A stretch of DNA of 40,068 nt from a virus (lineage: Duplodnaviria > Heunggongvirae > Uroviricota > Caudoviricetes), in the IMG/VR virus record IMGVR_UViG_2778261349_000008, positions 1-40,068 of that record. One strand, 5' to 3'. Every line of letters starts with the position of its first letter. The first letter of the stretch is position 1. Shown here one piece after another: positions 2,953 through 40,068 of the stretch. The notes below the pieces were generated by a model. That model searched no databases. It saw only the letters and a list, made by a program, of their open reading frames with translations, and was not told the origin of the DNA. The translations under genes and the position numbers were made by a program.

Positions 2953-3903
2953 TCACTCTCCTTTGATGCGAATGCCAGCAAGCCAGTTTCTTATGCCGAT
3001 ATATTCAGCGTTTCTGAAACCGCTTTTTACATATATAAAAGGCAAGCGAAGATTGTGACCATTGGCTGCCAAGTAGTCTTTACAACCCTGCTCGGTGAAA
3101 CAGCAGGTCACGAATTCATCAATATCTTTCACAGCAACGCGACGCCATTTTTCTGGTGGCTCCCGAAAGTTTTCATGAAGTAGTTCGAGACGACGACTTT
3201 GGCGTTTATTGGCTTCATTGCCATCTTCGTCAACCCAGACAATCCGGTCATGGTCATAATCAGCATCAACAACGATTTCGCGCTTTTGATACACACAAAA
3301 CATGGGATCTGACGTTATTCGATTGTCCTGTGTTCGAATATTTTCACCGATGATGCCAAACGAATCTGGTGCAGATTTTGTCTGCATCTCTTCGATACGT
3401 TCAGCCATCGCAGCACACTCTTCAAAGTTGCTTAATGCTTTTCGCTCCCATTCGGCGCATTGTTTTTCCAGTTCTGCTATGTGCTTACTTCCATCCGCGA
3501 TTACTCCCTCGTAATACTCGCGTTGCTCGTTGAGTTTTGATTTTGCTTCCTCAAGCTCAACACGCAGTTTCCCTACCGTTAGCGCAATATCCTCGTTCTC
3601 CTGGTCGCGGCGTTTGATGTATTGCTGGTTTCTTTCCCGTTCATCCAACAGTGCCAGCACGGTAGCTGGACTGGCTGCGGCGATGAATTCAGCATTGGCC
3701 TGCTGTTCCATTTGGAAATCTTCATCGAAACCGCTTTCTGGATGCGCTCCTTCAATTCTGAAAATAGGAATATATCCAGCAGCCTCGCGATGAATTAGTG
3801 CATCATCACCATCAAATCGGCCATCTCCATATTCGAGCGACCACTCGCCACACGTTGCTTTTTCTGCCTTAGCACGCAGTGCCTGATAGTCAATCTTGCT
3901 CAC
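2953..3903 (-). CDS. Ead/Ea22-like early protein
   Basis: 316-aa ORF with N-terminus (M)[21 protein letters not shown] typical of lambdoid Ea22-like proteins; GTG start preceded by AGGAGG; coiled-coil-like acidic middle region. Confidence 0.7.
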
Positions 3904-4687: not shown

Positions 4688-5170
4688 TTATTTGATAAGA
4701 AGTGAAGGTTTCCCAACTTTGAGTTGAGCGCCGGGGATATTTATTCCTGCTTTTAGTTGGTGTTTGATTGCCAGTTTGTCGGCTTTAATTGTCGTTTCAA
4801 ACTCAACGTATTCAGGAGGAAGGGCGCTTGAGTCGATGATTTCTACAGTTTCTGACGGTTTGCGGATTGTTACCTGGTGAATACCTGCTCGAATCTTTTT
4901 CTTGCCAACCATTTCAAGCGATGACGCTATATACGCCATAATGCTGTCAATCTTATTTTGAATTACTGCTGCTCGTTCATTCAGTGACTTTGCCTCGTCC
5001 TTGAGGCGTTCAGCATAACCAGATTCATTTTTAATAATGGCAAGAAGTTGCTCTATTTTATCGGTAAATTCTCCTTCCATTCCTTCTATTGTGTCAGCAA
5101 TCATCTCTGGCTCTAAATCTGAATCCATCAGCTTTGCGTATTCATTGGCTATTTCATACAGTTTGCTCAC
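4688..5170 (-). CDS. Gp157-family protein (phage recombination-associated, often paired with RecT)
   Basis: Coiled-coil-rich ORF directly downstream of recT; probable GTG start (MSKLYEIANEY...) preceded by GGAGG; family assignment from memory. Confidence 0.6.
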   Translation of the reverse strand: MSKLYEIANEYAKLMDSDLEPEMIADTIEGMEGEFTDKIEQLLAIIKNESGYAERLKDEAKSLNERAAVIQNKIDSIMAYIASSLEMVGKKKIRAGIHQVTIRKPSETVEIIDSSALPPEYVEFETTIKADKLAIKHQLKAGINIPGAQLKVGKPSLLIK

Positions 5171-6065
5171 TGGCAACCTCCAGTTTCGCTTTGCATTCTA
5201 TGTAAATGGCTTGTACGTTCTGCTGCAATTTCATTCCAGATGTCAGGCGATATGCTTCTGCAAAATATCGCTTCAAATCATCCATGTTTTCAGCCTGAGC
5301 CATTTCATCACAAAGAAGTTGTGCTTTATCCGTTATTTCCTGCTGGCGTTTCCGTTCATCTTCGCGGATATCTTCCTCTGATTTGTGCGGCATAACTGGT
5401 TCAGTCCAAACACCTTCTTCTTCGTTTAGTACGTGAATAGCACTATCAAGACGTGATGCCTTAGGCCAATACTTGCTTGCACGCTTTACGACCGTCTTTC
5501 GCGCCATCTCATTCCAGTGATTTACCCATGGTCCTTTATCGCTGAATGCCGCCTTGCTTGTTTTCCTTACAGCCTCAATTTCAGCCAGACTCATCTCTTC
5601 CGTTAGATAATCACCTGCTGGCGTCTTAACTGTGCAGTAAACGCCAACGATATCACCACGATCACCGAAGGCGTTGTATTTATGGGTTGGTGCTTTATCA
5701 AGCCCGTTTGACTCATAGGTATCGTTAGCATGAACAAGTTTTGCCTGACCCCATGAGATAACACCAGACTCCATTGCAATATGGAGCAATCCCATATAAC
5801 TGATATCAAGGCACACCATGCCGTCGCGCGGAACCAGATAAGCCAGTTTGCTAGCCGGGTTTAAGGTGATGCCGATCGCCGCAACATTGATGATGGCGTT
5901 CTGTGCGCTGGTTGGATTTGCCAGTGCTGTTTTAGCCAGGTAATCATTTTTCTGGAAATACTGAATTGCAAACTGGCTTTCCTTAGCCCATGTCACCGTC
6001 TGTTCAGTCAATGCCCCGCAGAATAACTGCTCCTGCTGTTTAACGAATTCAACGATATTGCTCAT
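5154..6065 (-). CDS. recT: RecT-family single-strand annealing recombinase
   Basis: 303-aa ORF with the conserved GPWVNHWNEMARKTVVKRASKYWP block shared with Rac RecT. Confidence 0.85.
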   Translation of the reverse strand: MSNIVEFVKQQEQLFCGALTEQTVTWAKESQFAIQYFQKNDYLAKTALANPTSAQNAIINVAAIGITLNPASKLAYLVPRDGMVCLDISYMGLLHIAMESGVISWGQAKLVHANDTYESNGLDKAPTHKYNAFGDRGDIVGVYCTVKTPAGDYLTEEMSLAEIEAVRKTSKAAFSDKGPWVNHWNEMARKTVVKRASKYWPKASRLDSAIHVLNEEEGVWTEPVMPHKSEEDIREDERKRQQEITDKAQLLCDEMAQAENMDDLKRYFAEAYRLTSGMKLQQNVQAIYIECKAKLEVASEQTV

Positions 6066-14515: not shown

Positions 14516-15164
14516 TGGCAGCAAATACCGAAATATTTGGGTAGTTGGCGATCTGCACGGATGCTACACGAACCTGATGAAAAAACTGGAGACGATAGGA
14601 TTCGACACCAAAAAAGACCTGCTTATCTCGGTGGGCGATTTGGTTGATCGCGGTACAGAGAACGTCGAATGTCTGGAATTAATCACATTCCCCTGGTTCC
14701 GAGCTGTACGTGGAAACCATGAGCAAATGATGATTGATGGCTTATCAGAGCGTGGAAACGTCAATCACTGGCTGTTTAATGGCGGTGGCTGGTTCTTTAA
14801 TCTCGATTACGACAAAGAAATTCTGGCTAAAGCTCTTGCCCATAAAGCAGATGAACTTCCGTTAATCATCGAACTGGTGAGCGAAGGTAAAAAATATGTC
14901 ATCTGCCACGCCGATTATCCCTGTGACGAATACGAGTTTGGAAAGCCAGTTGATCATCAGCAGGTAATCTGGAACCGCGAACGAATCAGCAACTCACAAG
15001 ACGGGATCGTGAAAGAAATCAAAGGAGCGGACACGTTCATCTTTGGTCATACGCCAGCAGTGAAACCACTCAAGTTTGCCAACCAGATGTATATCGATAC
15101 CGGCGCAGTGTTCTGCGGAAACCTCACATTGATTCAGGTACAGGGAGAAGGCGCATGGGCATAA
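14493..15164 (+). CDS. Ser/Thr protein phosphatase (lambda NinI-like metallophosphatase)
   Basis: Internal ATG with GGAG RBS; [28 protein letters not shown]...GNHE metallophosphatase motifs matching lambda phosphatase from memory. Confidence 0.9.
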
Positions 15165-15673
15165 GAGAACTAAACCTCACCAAAGAGCAGCACGAGTGGC
15201 TGAATGGCTGGCTTGAACTGTGGGGAGCATGGGTTTATTCAGGTCGTCTGGAAAAGCGCATGAGCAGCGTAATAGCTAAGTTCATGGAGAGCGTAGAGCC
15301 GGGAAGAGTTATGACAAGGCCAATGTGTAATGATGATGATGGAATGTTGATTTCTCAGGTCGTCGATTCCGTCATGTACATTGACAAGAAAGCCTTTGGC
15401 ATCCTCCTCAGCTACTACGCTCATGGTTCATCTAAGCGAGCAATTGCATCCTACTATCACGCGACTGCAAAGCCACGCAAGATGTGTGGGCGTGGTGGCG
15501 AGGGATGGAGAAAACCTTCACTGGCAACCTGTAGAAACGAAATTGACGATATCCTGAAAGCGTCATTATTTGTTTTGTACCAACCAATGCAAAATGCTTT
15601 CAAAATGCGTAAACGTGTTGAGAAAGTTAAGCATATTGCTGTTAAAAGTCTTGACATGCAATTAGCCATTTAG
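15155..15673 (+). CDS. Late-gene antiterminator Q (P22 gene 23 family)
   Basis: 172-aa ORF at the end of the nin region; WGAW and CNDDDGMLI motifs resemble P22 gp23 as I recall it. Confidence 0.7.
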
Positions 15674-15690
15674 CCATAATTAGAAGGTAA

Positions 15691-15732
15691 GCTGCCGTTA
15701 GTGACTCTTAAGTTGCAACGGTGGCTTTTTTT
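15691..15732 (+). terminator. Putative tR'-like terminator downstream of Q
   Basis: Imperfect stem (gctgccgtt...aacggtggc, with G-U pairs) followed by a T7 run. Confidence 0.4.
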
Positions 15733-15736
15733 ATTT

Positions 15737-15811
15737 GGGTCAGTCGTATAAAGGTCATTACGGAAGGCTGTTAACCTTCTTATCGTGGTTCGAGTCCACG
15801 CTGTCCCGCCA
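15737..15811 (+). tRNA. Phage-encoded tRNA candidate, anticodon GUU (Asn)
   Basis: Hand-folded cloverleaf: acceptor stem with one mismatch, GG in the D-loop, perfect 5-bp anticodon stem with loop cuGUUaa, T-arm cgtgg-TTCGAGT-ccacg, 3' CCA encoded. Confidence 0.5.
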
Positions 15812-15816
15812 AATAT

Positions 15817-15892
15817 GCTGGTTTATCTCCAATGGTAGAGCAGTCGCCTTGTAAGCGAATGGGTAGCGGTTCAAGTCCGTTAACCAGCACCA
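15817..15892 (+). tRNA. Phage-encoded tRNA candidate, anticodon UGU (Thr)
   Basis: Hand-folded cloverleaf: perfect 7-bp acceptor stem gctggtt/aaccagc, anticodon loop ctTGTaa, T-loop TTCAAGT, 3' CCA encoded. Confidence 0.55.
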
Positions 15893-16134
15893 TAACTGAG
15901 CCGTAGCCACTGGCTATCATGAATTCATCAGTGATAGTTACGCTGCGGCCTTCTACACATGACCTTCGTGAAAGCGGGTGGCAAGAGGTTGCGCTAACAA
16001 CCTCCTGCCGTTTTGCCCGTGCATATCGGTCACGAACAAATCTGATTACTAAACACAGTAGCCTGGATTTGTTCTATCAGTAATCGACCTTATTCCTAAT
16101 TAAATAGAGCAAATCCCCTTATTGGGGGTAAGAC

Positions 16135-16458
16135 ATGAAGATGCCAGAAAAACATGACCTGTTAGCCGCCATTCTCGCGGCAAAGGAACAAGGCATCGGG
16201 GCAATCCTTGCGTTTGCAATGGCGTACCTTCGCGGCAGATATAATGGCGGTGCGTTTACAAAAACAGTAATCGACGCAACGATGTGCGCCATTATCGCCT
16301 GGTTCATTCGTGACCTTCTCGACTTCGCCGGACTAAGTAGCAATCTCGCTTATATAACGAGCGTGTTCATCGGCTACATCGGTACTGACTCGATTGGTTC
16401 GCTTATCAAACGCTTCGCTGCTAAAAAAGCCGGAGTAGAAGATGGTGGAAATCAATAA
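16135..16458 (+). CDS. Holin (P22 gene 13-like)
   Basis: 107-aa membrane protein [34 protein letters not shown]... matching P22 holin from memory. Confidence 0.85.
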
Positions 16459-16918
16459 TCAACGTAAGGCGTTCCTCGATATGCTGGCGTGGTCAGAGGG
16501 AACTGATAACGGACGACAGAAAACCAGAAATCATGGTTATGACGTCATTGTAGGCGGAGAGCTATTCACTGATTACTCCGATCACCCTCGCAAACTTGTC
16601 ACGCTAAACCCAAAACTCAAATCAACAGCAGCCGGACGTTACCAGCTTCTTTCCCGTTGGTGGGATGCCTATCGTAAGCAGCTTGGCCTGAAAGACTTCT
16701 CTCCGAAAAGTCAGGACGCTGTGGCACTGCAACAGATTAAAGAGCGTGGCGCTTTACCGATGATTGATCGCGGTGATATTCGTCAGGCTATCGACCGTTG
16801 CAGCAATATCTGGGCTTCACTTCCGGGGGCTGGTTATGGTCAGTTCGAGCATAAGGCTGACAGCCTGATTGCAAAATTCAAAGAAGCAGGCGGAACGGTC
16901 AGAGAGATTGAGGTATGA
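16442..16918 (+). CDS. R: Endolysin, lambda R-type lytic transglycosylase
   Basis: 158-aa [54 protein letters not shown]... matching lambda R from memory. Confidence 0.9.
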
Positions 16919-17352
16919 GCAGAGTAACCGCGATTATCTCCGCTCTGGTTATCTGCATCATCGTCTGCCTGTCATGGGCTGTTAATCATTACCGTGATAA
17001 CGCAATCGCCTACAAAGAGCAGCGCGATAAAGCCACATCCATCATCGCTGACATGCAGAAGCGTCAACGTGATGTAGCAGAACTCGACGCCAGATACACA
17101 AAGGAGCTTGCTGATGCTAACGCGACTATCGAAAGTCTCCGTGCTGATGTTTCTGCTGGTCGTAAGCGCCTGCAAGTCGCCGCCACCTGTGCAAAGTCAA
17201 CGACCGGAGCCAGCAGCATGGGCGATGGAGAAAGCCCAAGACTTACAGCAGATGCTGAACTCAATTATTACCGTCTCCGAAGTGGAATCGACAGGATAAC
17301 CGCGCAGGTTAACTACCTGCAGGAATACATCAGGACGCAATGCCTTCGATGA
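16915..17352 (+). CDS. Rz: Rz i-spanin
   Basis: 145-aa ORF with N-terminal transmembrane segment and coiled-coil periplasmic domain, following the endolysin. Confidence 0.8.
17108..17299 (+). CDS. Rz1: Rz1 o-spanin lipoprotein, embedded in Rz in the +1 frame
   Basis: Lipobox LVVSAC followed by a Pro-rich segment; fully nested in Rz; true start may be an internal Met. Confidence 0.65.
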
Positions 17353-23881: not shown

Positions 23882-25153
23882 ATGCTTAACAATCTCGACA
23901 GTAACGTCAGTCAAATCGTTCTGAAAAAATTCCTTCCGGGTTTTATGTCAGATTTAGTTCTGGCGAAAACCGTAGACCGTCAGTTGCTGGCAGGTGAAAT
24001 CAACTCCAGCACTGGCGATAGCGTTAGCTTTAAACGTCCGCATCAATTCTCATCCCTCCGTACTCCCACTGGTGATATTTCAGGGCAAAATAAAAACAAC
24101 CTGATCTCAGGTAAAGCTACGGGGCGTGTAGGTAACTACATCACTGTTGCTGTTGAATATCAGCAACTGGAGGAAGCGATCAAGCTTAACCAACTGGAAG
24201 AAATTCTCGCGCCGGTTCGCCAGCGAATCGTTACCGACCTTGAAACAGAGCTTGCTCACTTCATGATGAATAACGGTGCGTTGTCACTTGGTAGCCCCAA
24301 TACTCCAATCACCAAATGGTCTGATGTTGCGCAGACGGCATCTTTCCTGAAAGACCTCGGCGTTAATGAAGGTGAAAACTATGCTGTAATGGATCCATGG
24401 TCTGCACAGCGACTTGCTGATGCGCAGACTGGTTTGCACGCTTCAGATCAATTGGTTCGTACTGCATGGGAGAATGCGCAGATCCCAACCAATTTTGGCG
24501 GCATTCGCGCACTGATGTCTAATGGGCTTGCCTCTCGTACGCAGGGGGCATTTGGCGGAACACTGACAGTCAAAACACAGCCAACTGTTACCTATAACGC
24601 AGTTAAAGACTCATACCAGTTCACTGTAACATTGACCGGGGCGACAGCCAGCGTTACAGGTTTCCTGAAAGCTGGTGATCAGGTTAAATTCACCAATACC
24701 TACTGGCTGCAACAGCAGACCAAACAGGCGTTGTATAACGGAGCCACACCAATTAGCTTCACAGCAACGGTTACTGCTGATGCTGATTCAGACAGCAGTG
24801 GCGATGTGACGGTTACGCTTTCTGGTGTTCCGATTTATGACACTACAAACCCGCAGTACAACTCTGTAAGTCGTCAGGTAGCGGCAGGCGATGCCGTATC
24901 TGTGGTAGGCACTGCTAGCCAGACAATGAAGCCAAACCTGTTCTATAACAAGTTCTTCTGTGGACTTGGCTCTATCCCACTGCCGAAACTGCACAGTATT
25001 GATTCTGCTGTTGCAACATATGAAGGTTTCTCCATCCGCGTACATAAATACGCAGATGGCGATGCCAACGTGCAAAAAATGCGCTTTGACTTACTGCCTG
25101 CATATGTGTGCTTTAACCCTCACATGGGCGGTCAGTTCTTCGGTAATCCGTAA
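23882..25153 (+). CDS. Major coat protein (P22 gp5-like)
   Basis: 423-aa ORF in the canonical position, followed by a strong terminator. Confidence 0.85.
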   Translation: MLNNLDSNVSQIVLKKFLPGFMSDLVLAKTVDRQLLAGEINSSTGDSVSFKRPHQFSSLRTPTGDISGQNKNNLISGKATGRVGNYITVAVEYQQLEEAIKLNQLEEILAPVRQRIVTDLETELAHFMMNNGALSLGSPNTPITKWSDVAQTASFLKDLGVNEGENYAVMDPWSAQRLADAQTGLHASDQLVRTAWENAQIPTNFGGIRALMSNGLASRTQGAFGGTLTVKTQPTVTYNAVKDSYQFTVTLTGATASVTGFLKAGDQVKFTNTYWLQQQTKQALYNGATPISFTATVTADADSDSSGDVTVTLSGVPIYDTTNPQYNSVSRQVAAGDAVSVVGTASQTMKPNLFYNKFFCGLGSIPLPKLHSIDSAVATYEGFSIRVHKYADGDANVQKMRFDLLPAYVCFNPHMGGQFFGNP

Positions 25154-35405: not shown

Positions 35406-37472
35406 ATGACAGACATTACAGCCAATGTGATCGTATCGATGCCTTCGCAACTCTTCACTATGGCGCGTTCTTTTAAAGCTGTAGCCAATGGAAAAATTTA
35501 TATCGGTAAAATTGACACTGACCCTGTAAATCCTGAAAACCAGATTCAGGTTTATGTGGAGAACGAAGACGGCTCTCACGTTCCCGTTTCGCAACCAATC
35601 ATCATTAACGCTGCTGGATATCCGGTATATAACGGACAGATTGCCAAATTTGTAACTGTGCAAGGCCATTCTATGGCTGTTTATGATGCATACGGTGCTC
35701 AGCAGTTTTATTTTCCTAATGTGCTGAAGTATGACCCTGATCAGCTAAGACAAGAATTAGAGAGTGGTATCGGAGCTTCAATAATAGGTTACGGATCATC
35801 GACAGTAAAAGATGCTCTTGATTCGGTTGTAAATAAACGTGTTTTGTACTTTTCCAGATTTGGCACACTGCAATCGCTGCAATCTTACATCACATCTAAC
35901 AACCTTAAAAACGTTGAAATTATTTTTGATCAGGTTGTGAATTTTGGCCCAGGAAGCGGAGGGTTGGGTACAATTGTTTCATTAAGCGACATGGACTATC
36001 TCGCCGTTAAGGGTTTGGTAATCAGAGACACTCTGCTTTATTCCGGCGCATTTGACCTGACGCGTGTGTTCGACCTGACGAATATCACCAATCTGGTGTT
36101 TGAAGTTGATGCCTCTTCCACACTTGAGTATGTCGGTGATGATAAGCGCGGACTGACCACACTGCGCCTGAATGGATGCGATAACTTCACATTTATCGGT
36201 AAGACTAGCAAGTGCTATCAGGGTTACGAATGCACTAATGTAAAAAATCTCTATGCTCGTAGTGTGAATAATGACACCCGCTACCCTCATCTTATGAGCA
36301 ATATAGGTTTGGTAGATATCAATACAAAAAACAATGGATGCCGCAGGGATTTCTTTCTTCAAAACAACTGCGCTGGCGGGCAAATCACAGTTGATGCCGT
36401 TGACACCCAGCAGGGTACGCCCATAAAGATGTATTTCTTTAACGGAAATATGGACAACCAGATATCTAATCTTGTTATAAAATATAAATATAGGAGCACA
36501 GGGAGATACACATTGCCATATCGTGTGGCTCCAATTTGGTTAGATTGGGGGTGGGATAGCTCGACAACAGAGACACTTATATCTGGTGTAATGCGTAATA
36601 TCACCATAGAGTATGATGTTGTAGGAGGCAATTGGGGTAGTGTCATTGGTACAACCAAACTAATAGATGAAACTATTGGGGATGGTGTAGCAAGAGGATA
36701 TGTTTATTCAAACATATTAATCAAAGGAAGAATTGAGTTAGGAGGAGGAGACTCCAATAATAAAGCGTGGGTATATAATTTTAACACTACCGATAACTGG
36801 AAAGATGGAGATGATATTAATGGATTTTACCTAAAAGACATTGTAATAAGAAAGTTAAATGGCGGTGAGGTGTATCTCAATACAAATCAATTAGCTGGGG
36901 CAGTGAAATCTAGTGGGCAAATAGTTTTGGATAATGTTTCTGCACCAGAGCTGATACTTTCAGCTCAAAGTTATGGCGATAAGGTCATGTTTAATAACTG
37001 CAATCTTTATGATTTCACAACTAAAAATGCTGTTAAAAATGCATATCAATCGCTTAAAACTACATGTACGATAAGAAAAGCATCAGGCGATGCCTCAAGC
37101 TTCCAAATTGGGTCAATGAGTGTATATAGAACAATCTGTTTCCTTTCGGTAGATATTAAAGCGACATCACCTTCATCAGGAAGTGTAAGTACATGGGGTG
37201 GTAATATAACTGGACAGTTGGTGCAAGGTACTACAGCAGGAAATGTAACATTAACTGGCAATACAAATACTTTGTACACAACAGGAACGGCATTAAATCC
37301 GTCTATTAGGTGCGAGACAGACGGCAGGATTATAATTACATTTGCAGGGTGGGAGTCGCTTGAAGCATTCATAACGTGCGATATTGCAATGGTTTACAAT
37401 GAATATTCAGGTGGATCTAATAACACAGTTCTCGGCCTGGTAAACAAGAAATTTGCTGTTGGAACTGTTTAA
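35406..37472 (+). CDS. Tailspike protein: P22/HK620-type N-terminal head-binding domain fused to a divergent beta-helix receptor-binding domain
   Basis: N-terminal ~110 aa ([46 protein letters not shown]...NVLKYDPDQ) match the conserved head-binding domain; the remaining ~575 aa do not resemble P22 or HK620 tailspikes as I recall them. Confidence 0.85.
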
Positions 37473-37666: not shown

Positions 37667-38824
37667 TCACTCCACCTTTTCATCAATCCAGTCCGCCCAC
37701 CACTGCATCATTTCTCTGCGCTTATCGAGATACTGAGCATGGTTGTAAATCCCGCGCACAGATCCGCCGTTGGCATGTGCCAGTTGCACTTCAATAGCGT
37801 CAGCAGGCCATTCGTGCTCGTTCATAATCGTGCTGAATTCATGCCTGAATCCGTGACCGCTTTCCAGACCCTCATAGCCGATTTGTTTGATCACAAGTAG
37901 CACCGCGTTCTCGCAGATTGGCTTCTTCTTATCGTTGCGTCCGGCAAAAACAAACTCTGATACTGGTTTAGTGATGGAGCTTAGCGTAGTGAGAAGTTCA
38001 ACCACCTGGTCCGACATCGGGACCACATGAATCTTGCGTCCCTTCATCACACTGGCGTCGATGGTGATAATCTTGTTTTCAAAATCGACGTTCTTCCATT
38101 GCATGGAACGAAGCTCTTTCGTTCTTAGGGCTGTGTAGCGTAAAACCTTGGTGGCAATGAGCGATACGATACTTCCTGAAAATGTTGCCAGTGCTTTGTT
38201 GAATTCCGGGATCTGGTCTGCAGGAAGAAACGGGAAGTTCTTCTTGCGGTATCCCTTCATGGCGTCAGCAAGGTCAGGTGCCGGGTTATATTTAGCCCTA
38301 CCAGTGACAATAGCGTAACGGAAAACCTCGCCGCATCTTCTGCGTGCTTTGTTGGCTCGCTCCATTGCGCCGCGATCTTCAAATCTGCGGATTACTTCCA
38401 GCAGTTGCATCGGCTCAATATCCTGAATTTCAAGGCCGCCGATGATAGGTAAAATGTCGTCATCAAACATTTTTGCAAGTTCATTCGCATACCCTACTGA
38501 CCAGACTTGCTTCTTGTGCTCGTACCATTCCTTGTAAATCGCACTAAAGGAATTGTTGTTAGACGAAGCCTTTTTCGCTTTTACCGGATCGATGCCAACC
38601 GAGATGTCTTTCCTCGCGGTCCATGCTTTATCTCTTGCCTCCTGCAAAGTCATTAGCGGATATTTTCCTACGGTCAGGATTTTCTCCTTACCGTCAATCT
38701 TGTAGCGAAGCTGCCATACCTTTTTACCTGACACAGGGACATAAAGGTACAGGCCATTACCATCGAGTAGGCGGTATGGTTTTTCTTTCGGCTTTGCTGC
38801 TTCAATCTGCTTAACGGTGAGCAT
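37667..38824 (-). CDS. intS: Tyrosine integrase, P4-type (KplE1/CPS-53 IntS-like)
   Basis: Matches my recollection of K-12 IntS from MLTVKQIEAAKPKEKPYRLLDGNGLYLYVPVSGKK...; C-terminal catalytic region with R...HxxR...Y; directly next to argW in the same orientation; the listed ORF start at 38860 is an upstream GTG. Confidence 0.85.
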   Translation of the reverse strand: MLTVKQIEAAKPKEKPYRLLDGNGLYLYVPVSGKKVWQLRYKIDGKEKILTVGKYPLMTLQEARDKAWTARKDISVGIDPVKAKKASSNNNSFSAIYKEWYEHKKQVWSVGYANELAKMFDDDILPIIGGLEIQDIEPMQLLEVIRRFEDRGAMERANKARRRCGEVFRYAIVTGRAKYNPAPDLADAMKGYRKKNFPFLPADQIPEFNKALATFSGSIVSLIATKVLRYTALRTKELRSMQWKNVDFENKIITIDASVMKGRKIHVVPMSDQVVELLTTLSSITKPVSEFVFAGRNDKKKPICENAVLLVIKQIGYEGLESGHGFRHEFSTIMNEHEWPADAIEVQLAHANGGSVRGIYNHAQYLDKRREMMQWWADWIDEKVE

Positions 38825-38985
38825 GGGTAAAAATCCGGTGGGTAAAATTATTTTATCCACTTTTTACCCGTCATGGAGTGCGGATGTCAACGATCTGACG
38901 CGAACCATTACGAACTGTGAATCTACGGAAGGCTTGATATTCAGGGGATTTTGCGGACTGGTACGGATGGGAGAGAACTGATAAA

Positions 38986-39000
38986 TGGTGTCCCCTGCAG
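38986..39000. repeat. attR core: 15-bp direct repeat (tggtgtcccctgcag), the 3' end of argW
   Basis: Identical to 1690-1704. Confidence 0.8.
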
Positions 39001-39060
39001 GAATCGAACCTGCAATTAGCCCTTAGGAGGGGCTCGTTATATCCATTTAACTAAGAGGAC
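38986..39060 (-). tRNA. argW: tRNA-Arg (anticodon CCU)
   Basis: Reverse complement reads GTCCTCTTAGTTAAATGGATATAACGAGCCCCTCCTAAGGGCTAATTGCAGGTTCGATTCCTGCAGGGGACACCA: 75 nt, cloverleaf with anticodon loop CTCCTAA and 3' CCA. Confidence 0.9.
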
Positions 39061-39135: not shown

Positions 39136-40068
39136 TTATGCTGGGTTTTTATCATTTTTCTTAATGTTTTCCGCACGTTCTGCTTTTTGGCGTGCTTCTG
39201 CTTTACGCTTGTTGCTCATGTCGTTACGAATCTGTGCATGACTCATTAACGCGAAGATAAAGGTGCCGCCGCAGATGTTCCCCGCTAAAGTAGGTAGTGC
39301 GAAGGGCCAGATGAAATCGCTCCAGTGCAGCGTGCCGTTAAACACCAGATAGAGGATTTCAACAGAACCGACAACGATGTGGGTGGTGTCACCCAGTGCA
39401 ATAAGCCAGGTCATCAATATAATCACCACAATCTTTGCCGCACCCGCAGCAGGAAACATCCAAACCATAGTGGCGATCAGCCAGCCGGAAATGATCGCGT
39501 TGGCAAACATCTCGCTGGGGGTGTTCTTCATCACATCCATGCCGATTTTGACAAATGCATCGCGAGTTTCTTCATTGAAGATAGGCATATATTCAAATGC
39601 CCATGCAGCAATACCTGTCCCGAGAATATTACCCAGCAGCACGACGCCCCATAATCGCATAAGTAAGCCGACGTTGCTCATTGTCGGTTTTTGCATGACG
39701 GGTAGTACCGCAGTCACGGTGTTTTCGGTAAATAATTGCTGGCGGGCCATAATGACGATAATAAAACCAAAGGTATAACCGAGATTCTCCAGTAAGAAGC
39801 TGCCTGGCACTCCTTCCAGTTCGACATGAAATATCCCTTTTGCCAGTAGCGAAGCGCCCATCGACAGACCCGCCGCAATGGCTGACCACAGTAGCGCCAT
39901 TGCGTCGCGTTCCAGCTCTTTTTCACCATCCTGGCGGATATGCTCATGAATTGCCATCGCCCGGGAGGGGAGTCGATCTTCATCTATTTCTATTTTTTTG
40001 CCGCGCTCTTTTTCTTCGCTCTCAACTTCAATTTCGTCGCTGTGTTGATCAATTTTGTCGTTGTCCAT
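39136..40068 (-). CDS. yfdC: Inner-membrane protein of the formate/nitrite transporter (FNT) family (host gene)
   Basis: 310-aa ORF with multiple transmembrane segments; in K-12 the gene next to argW is yfdC; the start codon sits at the window edge. Confidence 0.7.
   Translation of the reverse strand: MDNDKIDQHSDEIEVESEEKERGKKIEIDEDRLPSRAMAIHEHIRQDGEKELERDAMALLWSAIAAGLSMGASLLAKGIFHVELEGVPGSFLLENLGYTFGFIIVIMARQQLFTENTVTAVLPVMQKPTMSNVGLLMRLWGVVLLGNILGTGIAAWAFEYMPIFNEETRDAFVKIGMDVMKNTPSEMFANAIISGWLIATMVWMFPAAGAAKIVVIILMTWLIALGDTTHIVVGSVEILYLVFNGTLHWSDFIWPFALPTLAGNICGGTFIFALMSHAQIRNDMSNKRKAEARQKAERAENIKKNDKNPA

Follow-up and report, generated by a model that had tools for sequence, protein, structure and literature searches.

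Two tandem tRNA genes between Q and the lysis genes

Two tRNA genes, one for tRNA-Asn(GUU) and one for tRNA-Thr(UGU), lie in tandem behind a late leader terminator and ahead of the lysis genes of a prophage. The window, by which we mean the whole 40,068-nucleotide stretch of DNA that was analysed, represents an Sf6/HK620-like (P22-type) prophage, and its first 25 kb are about 98% identical to Sf6, HK620 and several vB_EcoP phages, in mosaic blocks. The features of the late region are as follows.

15155-15673, plus strand: Q21-family late antiterminator gene, 172 aa (Pfam Phage_antitermQ, 1.1e-25)
15651-15680, plus strand: pR' late promoter, TTGACA, 18-nt spacer, CATAAT (11/12 sigma-70 match in a promoter scan)
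15689-15736, plus strand: tR' leader terminator, with a long hairpin (core 15691-15725) and, behind it, the tract UUUUUUUAUUU (RNA fold and alignment)
15737-15811, plus strand: tRNA-Asn(GUU), 75 nt, CCA encoded, discriminator G73 (ARAGORN, Rfam)
15812-15816, plus strand: 5-nt spacer AATAT between both tRNAs
15817-15892, plus strand: tRNA-Thr(UGU), 76 nt, CCA encoded, G1-C72, C2-G71, A73 (ARAGORN, Rfam)
15826, plus strand: G10->T substitution in tRNA-Thr, breaking the D-stem pair G10-C25 (U.C)
15893-15952, plus strand: conserved downstream segment that travels with the tRNA pair
16135-17352, plus strand: lysis cassette of a lambda-S-type holin, an R-type endolysin and Rz, with which the late genes downstream begin (Pfam, Sf6 annotation)
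16135-16458, plus strand: lambda-S-type holin (Pfam Phage_holin_3_1)
16442-16918, plus strand: putative endolysin ORF, at the position of the lambda-R-like endolysin annotated in Sf6
16915-17352, plus strand: Rz gene (Pfam Phage_lysis)

The prophage is integrated at argW, the host tRNA-Arg(CCU) gene, with the following features at and around its ends.

1-1248: LacY-family sugar permease gene, flanking the prophage
1998-2013 and 39000-39015: the two copies of a 16-bp direct repeat, GGAATCGAACCTGCAA
37667-38860, minus strand: tyrosine integrase gene, adjoining the tRNA-Arg gene
38986-39060, minus strand: tRNA-Arg (anticodon CCT), the third tRNA call of ARAGORN in the window
39136-40068, minus strand: gene of the formate/nitrite-transporter family, flanking the prophage

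The earlier note had read the pair from the letters as tandem Asn-GUU and Thr-UGU cloverleaves with canonical T-loops, 7-nt anticodon loops with U33 and an encoded CCA, and had named ARAGORN as a check. ARAGORN calls both candidates and rejects neither, Rfam places them at the same coordinates (15737-15811 and 15817-15892), and the cloverleaf features are borne out by the sequence and by Rfam. The Rfam RF00005 scores are 55.3 bits for tRNA-Asn (E-value of 2e-9) and 51.8 bits for tRNA-Thr (E-value of 2e-8), with E-values calculated for the 40-kb window. The gathering score of this family is 29 bits, and the window tRNA-Thr is still 23 bits over the threshold.

The 7-nt anticodon loops are CUGUUAA (Asn) and CUUGUAA (Thr), both with U33 and a purine at position 37. 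The T-loops, UUCGAGU in tRNA-Asn and UUCAAGU in tRNA-Thr, are of the UUCRANY type, and each D-loop contains GG. The complete anticodon arm, with the loop in brackets, reads GAAGG[CUGUUAA]CCUUC in tRNA-Asn and GUCGC[CUUGUAA]GCGAA in tRNA-Thr, the latter being exactly the arm of phage 21. The identity elements in Escherichia coli are G34, U35, U36 and G73 for AsnRS, and G1-C72, C2-G71, G35 and U36 for ThrRS. Read from the sequence, all of them are present in the respective window tRNA, and aminoacylation with Asn and Thr would be expected. tRNA-Asn also has the conserved G10-C25 pair and A14, whereas tRNA-Thr departs from the conserved G10-C25 and U8-A14 pairs, with U10.C25 and C14. This is a departure within tRNA-Thr and no ground for denying it the status of a tRNA gene. 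Both are real tRNA genes, Asn-GUU and Thr-UGU, far beyond chance.

Late leader, terminator and lysis genes

Annotations of Sf6 and of E. coli genomes name the homologue of the gene at 15155-15673 as the Q antiterminator, and pR' aligns to the annotated pR' of Sf6 and phage 21. Between the pR' hexamers, at 15661-15676, the direct repeats ATTAGCCA/TTTAGCCA occupy the site of the Q-binding elements (QBE) of phage 21, which at the equivalent place have the sequence ATTGAGCA/AATGAGCA. Alignment to the phage 21 annotation puts the probable transcription start at about 15687. The tR' region folds with -20.8 kcal/mol (z -4.3; 0 of 200 shuffles equally stable), its hairpin matches the terminators annotated in phage 21 and Sf6 without a difference, and its end directly abuts the start of tRNA-Asn. 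A simple terminator scan with a loop rule of 3-8 nt missed tR', and the hairpin was found by direct folding of the region. In the lysis cassette, the ORF at 16442-16918 did not yield a Pfam match.

The GenBank records of Sf6 and phage 21 show the same series of Q, pR', qut/QBE, tR', tRNA-Asn, tRNA-Thr and lysis genes, and the tandem has been described downstream of Q in SfI, Sf6, ST64T, PS3 and p21 (PMC3636060). The position after Q and tR' and before the lysis genes, which had been recognised from the letters, is therefore the one already annotated for this module. The shared order, including the 5 nt between the tRNA genes, extends from phage 21 and Sf6 to SfI, ST64T, PS3, BTP1, SPN9CC and Bas106. 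Compared with phage 21, the Q protein and the Q-binding repeats of the window are of the Sf6 type, and the lysis cassette is lambda-type, in contrast to the pinholin/SAR-endolysin type of phage 21.

With this arrangement, pR' would fire and its transcript would end at tR' (15689-15736) unless Q modifies RNA polymerase, and the Q-modified polymerase would read through tR' into both tRNA genes and on into the lysis and virion genes. The tRNAs would be made only in late lytic growth, because their expression would need Q read-through of tR'. Host tRNA-processing enzymes would presumably excise them from the late transcript, with the CCA being already encoded. A search of the literature on expression of the pair, in BTP1 or in further lambdoid prophages, yielded nothing useful.

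Distribution and conservation of the module

The module is already known, being annotated in phages 21, Sf6, SfI and BTP1. A 301-nt query around the pair matched 98 phage records, 44 of them mostly covered, which include Sf6, phage 21, BTP1, SPN9CC, Oslo and Bas106 and many of which annotate both tRNAs. Of 5,426 complete E. coli genomes, 346 (about 6%) carry the tRNA-Thr gene. All 60 IMG/VR loci that were scanned have Asn followed by Thr with a 5-nt spacer, and a third tRNA nearby in none of them; the spacer alleles AATAT and AACAT are both common. C14 in tRNA-Thr is common to the whole lambdoid family.

In 89 of 119 viral contigs, the pair is directly preceded by the 21-type tR' hairpin, which is combined with several QBE types. 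On the other side, 109 of 112 contigs agree in the first 60 nt 3' of tRNA-Thr, and the first long downstream ORF encodes at least five different proteins. The pair thus forms its own mosaic unit, because its edges are conserved and both the QBE types upstream and the ORF products downstream vary.

This mosaic behaviour, and the start of the pair directly after the U-tract of tR', would also suit an explanation in which the main use of the tRNA folds is to let RNase P/RNase E in, so that the qut/tR' leader is severed from the late mRNA, or to offer a conserved sequence for recombination between lambdoid modules. However, a leader of the same architecture but lacking tRNAs is found in many lambdoid phages, such as lambda itself, and a processing site needs neither a fixed Asn and Thr identity, as seen in 60 of 60 loci, nor intact identity elements. 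Decoding of ACA by the tRNA-Thr has moreover been demonstrated (PMC12445682). We regard this explanation as unlikely to the point of being hardly credible.

Across phages of E. coli, Shigella, Salmonella and Klebsiella, the identity within the family is 97-100%. The multi-copy polymorphisms of tRNA-Thr in 120 viral contigs (A26G and C14T) are all at unpaired positions, and the stem-breaking changes are singletons, a pattern that looks like purifying selection on a working tRNA. Occasional degenerate copies carry indels or a GTT->GAT anticodon change.

A substitution in the D-stem of tRNA-Thr

Compared with phage 21 and Sf6, the window tRNA-Asn is 100% identical, and tRNA-Thr is identical at 75 of 76 positions (98.7%), the sole difference being G10->T. 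None of the 5,426 complete E. coli genomes has this T10 allele (no match of >=99%), and it is absent from phage records and, by an exact 31-mer scan, from 185,579 GTDB species-representative genomes. It occurs in one of 120 IMG/VR contigs (L020), there alongside further changes, and the allele is essentially private. A search for a near-identical G10 prophage by which the mutation could be dated gave a best match of about 98% over 5 kb. T10 may be a recent mutation or a sequencing error. The lesion had been overlooked in the earlier note.

With T10, the Rfam score is 51.8 bits instead of 61.5 (-9.7). The substitution changes the cloverleaf energy from -23.1 to -18.7 kcal/mol (4.4 lost), and the minimum-energy fold is then not a cloverleaf, in a prediction that ignores tertiary contacts and modifications and in which the minimum-energy fold of the host thrU is likewise not a cloverleaf. 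The folding model is only suggestive of a weakened tRNA-Thr cloverleaf. What the tRNA contributes to phage fitness could be gauged from the G10->T copy as a natural experiment.

These losses raise the question of whether the tRNA-like genes, or at least the T10 tRNA-Thr, are inactive relics that hitch-hike with the pR'-tR' leader. The Rfam scores of 52-61 bits, compared with 72-78 bits for the host, P7 and N4 tRNAs, would agree with decay, as would the degenerate copies found elsewhere and the non-canonical features of both molecules: the mismatches U4.U69 and U13.U22 with a variable loop of 4 nt in tRNA-Asn, and C14 and the G27.A43 mismatch in tRNA-Thr, plus U10.C25 in the window copy only. 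The 97-100% conservation with variation mostly at unpaired positions argues for working genes, however, and the folding result loses weight as evidence of decay, since it fails for the host thrU too. The G10 version works in vivo, and G27.A43 is itself a determinant of nuclease resistance (PMC12445682). We therefore consider it unlikely, and indeed very improbable, that the genes are mere passengers.

Codon supply

Codon usage in 19 late ORFs and 22 early ones, all picked from the ORF lists, was set against that of 42 annotated K-12 genes, which stood for the host. ACA, the codon decoded by tRNA-Thr(UGU), occurs 20.7 times per 1000 codons in the late set, 12.8 times in the early set and 5.4 times in K-12, with odds ratios of 3.9 (late) and 2.4 (early). 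With its 3.8-fold enrichment in late genes, it ranks third among the enriched codons. It makes up 12 of the 422 codons of the ORF at 23882-25153 and 31 of the 687 codons of the ORF at 35406-37472, which also has 58 Asn codons; gene order and the match to Sf6 suggest that these ORFs encode the probable coat protein and the probable tailspike, respectively. The host has a single tRNA with a UGU anticodon. The tRNA-Thr would thus provide extra capacity for ACA-rich late genes that otherwise rely on the single-copy host tRNA-ThrU.

Supplementation of late-gene codons was one of two functions that the earlier note had suggested, and the comparison separates the two tRNAs in this respect. It is well supported for Thr and weak for Asn, with AAT being 1.9-fold and AAC 1.0-fold in late genes. 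An ACA codon bias was also described for SfI in 2013, in a paper that saw none for Asn and regarded the role of tRNA-Asn as unclear (PMC3636060).

The pair could serve codon supply only, for ACA and for the Asn codons of the tailspike, with any nuclease resistance being an accidental by-product of divergence. The ACA bias in the window and in SfI, the lone UGU tRNA of the host, the AAT enrichment and the many Asn codons of the probable tailspike all favour this explanation, which we see as the main rival to the account given below. However, AAC is not enriched, and AGA and AGG (6.9-fold) and ATA (3.4-fold) are enriched to the level of ACA or beyond, with phage tRNAs for them being absent. Because these codons are enriched yet unsupplied, codon supply alone leaves the choice of Asn and Thr unexplained.

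Comparison with the targets of P2 Old and PARIS AriB

The P2 Old nuclease kills by cleaving tRNA-ThrU(UGU) of the host at two sites of the anticodon stem, one behind C28 and one behind C40, both of them in paired CNG motifs (PMC12445682). Phage tRNA-Thr(UGU) genes, that of phage 21 included, rescue cells hit by Old, if only partially; with the tRNA-Thr of phage 21, Old+Gam+ cells are protected, and the molecule withstands purified Old (PMC12445682). The rescue works by a cleavage-resistant phage tRNA replacing the host tRNA and involves no shielding; with tRNA-Thr6, host tRNA-ThrU is still depleted, and the authors conclude that replacement, and not competitive inhibition, is at work (PMC12445682). 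For resistance, changes in the CNG motifs at 28-30 and 40-42 have to be combined with a shortened anticodon stem, and anticodon-arm swaps showed that particular arm changes confer protection, the G27.A43 mismatch among them (PMC12445682).

The second nuclease, AriB of the PARIS system, targets the tRNAs Lys(UUU), Thr(UGU) and Asn(GUU) and cuts between positions 40 and 41 in UAAUC|N, and U39->A in tRNA-Lys abolishes cleavage (PMC12409363). The Lys, Thr and Asn tRNAs of T5 jointly neutralise PARIS, with tRNA-Lys(UUU) being the primary target and required for bypass (PMC12409363).

The corresponding positions are given below, in a numbering that was validated by its reproduction of the published changes in T5 tRNA-Lys (UAAACC).

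Host ThrU: 28-30/40-42 CUG/CAG; 27:43 A-U; 36-41 UAAUCA
Window and phage 21 Thr: 28-30/40-42 UCG/CGA; 27:43 G.A mismatch; 36-41 UAAGCG
Host Asn: 28-30/40-42 CGG/CCG; 27:43 G-U; 36-41 UAAUCC
Window Asn: 28-30/40-42 AAG/CUU; 27:43 G-C; 36-41 UAACCU

The window tRNA-Thr combines the UGU anticodon of the preferred host target with altered CNG motifs and a shortened stem, and its arm is an experimentally validated resistant arm, because it is identical to that of phage 21. In the terms of Govande et al. 2025 (PMC12445682), who studied tRNA-Thr6 and tRNA-Thr21, the anticodon arm is that of tRNA-Thr21, in which neither CNG motif is preserved and positions 27 and 43 are unpaired. tRNA-Thr21 as assayed has G10 and was plasmid-borne in the rescue, whereas the window copy has T10 and belongs to a P22-like prophage. 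tRNA-Asn shows one of the two determinants: its CNG motifs are lost, and its stem keeps 5 pairs. U39 is absent from both window tRNAs, as in the PARIS-neutralising T5 tRNA-Thr (G39). The inference of resistance is weak for tRNA-Asn, because any diverged tRNA may lose U39 or the CNG motifs by chance.

The other function that the earlier note had suggested, a decoy against tRNA-targeting defences, holds as far as the defence is concerned, since the phage 21 tRNA-Thr, one base off, protects against P2 Old; the word decoy does not fit, the published mechanism being replacement (PMC12445682).

Compared with the T5 set (PMC12409363, PMC11464382), the pair shares two of three anticodons, UGU and GUU, and in both tRNAs the U39 next to the 40|41 cut is lost; the sequences are no close homologues of the T5 genes. 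A tRNA-Lys(UUU) that would complete an anti-PARIS set was found neither in the window (ARAGORN) nor beside the pair in 60 related loci. Because the phage is without this tRNA, the pair would not be expected to overcome, by itself, the PARIS system studied.

A homologue of lambda Gam or of the P22 Abc2-type RecBCD inhibitor, the trigger of Old, was not recognised in the window, where RecT was found. One window protein is Mu-Gam-like according to PHROGs and Sipho_Gp157 according to Pfam. HepS, a prophage nuclease acting on tRNA-Thr, was also considered and judged irrelevant, as its trigger is siphovirus J tail-tip proteins and the phage here is P22-like.

Proposed role of the pair

P1/P7 and N4 carry homologous tRNA-Thr(UGU) genes with 79-86% identity, sharing the acceptor and T arms; from the MAFFT alignment of N4, only the Thr part was used. 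The order of Asn before Thr is shared with P7, where the two are adjacent, and with N4 (Asn-Ser-Thr-Pro), whereas the tRNA-Asn genes of P1/P7 and N4 are not obviously homologous to that of the window and the genomic context differs. T5, too, has tRNAs of both specificities. In the P7 tRNA-Thr the two CNG motifs (CUG/CAG) are intact, which predicts sensitivity to Old, and because of this not every homologous tRNA-Thr looks resistant. We infer that the recurrence of Asn and Thr in unrelated coliphages fits the target lists of Old and AriB better than a shared codon bias. Together with the arm swaps, which pin the protection on specific arm changes (PMC12445682), this speaks against codon supply as the sole role of the pair, an explanation that we hold to be rather unlikely.

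The account that we prefer, and consider probable on balance, has the pair expressed late in dependence on Q, with a dual role for tRNA-Thr in ACA decoding and nuclease resistance. With its altered anticodon stem, tRNA-Thr would resist the Toprim nuclease Old of P2, and probably AriB of PARIS, and would substitute for the destroyed host tRNA-ThrU. tRNA-Asn(GUU) would most likely have the same replacement role for the secondary nuclease target tRNA-Asn, and T10 would be a rare and possibly weakening allele in this phage.

A stronger form, which we put forward tentatively from the anticodon arms, is that the Asn(GUU) and Thr(UGU) tandem may be a dedicated cassette against Toprim tRNA nucleases, with tRNA-Asn being the resistant replacement for a secondary target of Old and AriB. 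If true, this would explain the joint recurrence of Asn and Thr in lambdoid and P22-like phages, P1/P7, N4 and T5. As a corollary, the private T10 allele would be a weakened copy and the prophage newly sensitive to P2 interference. The anticodons of the pair coincide with targets of two nucleases that are borne by P2-like phages and P4-like satellites of the same hosts, and a nuclease-resistant tRNA-Asn would resolve an old puzzle, the presence of an Asn tRNA in lambdoid phages despite the lack of a bias towards Asn codons.

The pair carries little weight as a discovery: its annotation goes back to the sequences of phages 21 and Sf6, a discussion for SfI followed in 2013, and a mechanism for the Thr member in 2025. 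It provides a worked example of a temperate-phage tRNA pair behind a Q-dependent terminator, probably made late, as the ACA-rich virion genes are translated.

The same lambdoid late-leader site is used in Stx phages such as 933W, where the tRNA genes ileZ-argN-argO lie downstream of Q/pR' and upstream of morons and lysis genes. Their specificities differ from those of the window pair, and the genes are without sequence relationship to it. They serve rare Ile and Arg codons, and the usual explanation for them is codon supply for stx and the late genes.

tRNA-Asn and tRNA-Thr alleles

The tRNA-Thr(UGU) gene of the window carries T at position 10 (15826), in contrast to phage 21, Sf6, and 119 of 120 viral contigs, which have G10. 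The change creates a U10.C25 mismatch in the D-stem. The T10 allele was found in none of 5,426 E. coli genomes, in no phage record, and in none of the GTDB representative genomes; it may reflect either a sequencing error or a weakening mutation of recent origin.

The position immediately 5' of tRNA-Thr is occupied by different genes among the related contigs. Four IMG/VR contigs (L089, L092, L098, and L122) have a variant tRNA-Asn allele there. Its acceptor stem, with the U4.U69 mismatch and G73, and its anticodon loop are those of the usual allele, but its D, anticodon-stem, and T arms are wholly unlike. Its anticodon stem reads UUCGG/CCGAA, so that positions 28-30 and 40-42 are UCG/CGA, matching tRNA-Thr. 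The variant looks like a mosaic tRNA. On contig L017 (13532-13606), the Asn gene has its anticodon changed from GTT to GAT, along with two further changes, and is called as tRNA-Ile. An unlike tRNA replaces the Asn gene on contig L095, with an anticodon loop that by eye is that of Gly(UCC).

Phage P7 (L006, 523-676) has a tRNA-Asn gene followed immediately by a homologous tRNA-Thr(UGU), and N4 (L005, 427-676) has the tRNA order Asn-Ser-Thr-Pro. In the P7 tRNA-Thr, the two CNG motifs (CUG/CAG) are intact and the stem is full, which predicts sensitivity to the tRNA nuclease P2 Old. From the tRNA-Thr genes of N4 and T5, the CNG motifs are gone.

Late promoter and region downstream of the tRNA pair

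The tRNA pair is flanked by the following features:

15661-15676: direct repeats ATTAGCCA/TTTAGCCA, between the -35 and -10 hexamers of the late promoter pR'
15919-16083 (+): putative 54-aa ORF, within the 240 nt that separate tRNA-Thr from the holin gene

Phage 21 has the Q-binding elements ATTGAGCA/AATGAGCA in the place equivalent to the pR' repeats, and its homology to the window starts only near the transcription start. The different repeats, together with this late onset of homology, suggest that the window encodes a Q21-family antiterminator with a DNA specificity differing from that of phage 21 (Sf6 type). At least four variants of the repeats occur among the related contigs. The beginning of the gap between tRNA-Thr and holin is conserved together with the tRNA pair among carriers.

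Prophage ends and recombination module

These features lie at or near the prophage ends:

1-1248: LacY-family sugar permease gene, host flank
1998-2013 and 39000-39015: 16-bp direct repeat GGAATCGAACCTGCAA, marking both prophage ends
37667-38860 (-): tyrosine integrase gene, adjoining tRNA-Arg(CCU)
38986-39060 (-): tRNA-Arg(CCU), the third tRNA of the window
39136-40068: formate/nitrite-transporter family gene, opposite host flank

The tRNA-Arg(CCU) is the attachment-site tRNA of the host, likely argW.

The early-left accessory genes close to the prophage end (2304-2981 and 2953-3903, both on the minus strand) encode a fusion of a dATP/dGTP pyrophosphohydrolase domain with DUF551, and an Ead/Ea22-like protein.

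The recombination module comprises two genes:

4688-5176 and 5154-6065 (both -): RecT-family annealing protein and its neighbour

No homologue of lambda Gam or P22 Abc2, RecBCD inhibitors of the kind that would trigger P2 Old, was recognised in the window. The RecT neighbour is assigned to Mu Gam-like end protection by PHROGs and to Sipho_Gp157 by Pfam.
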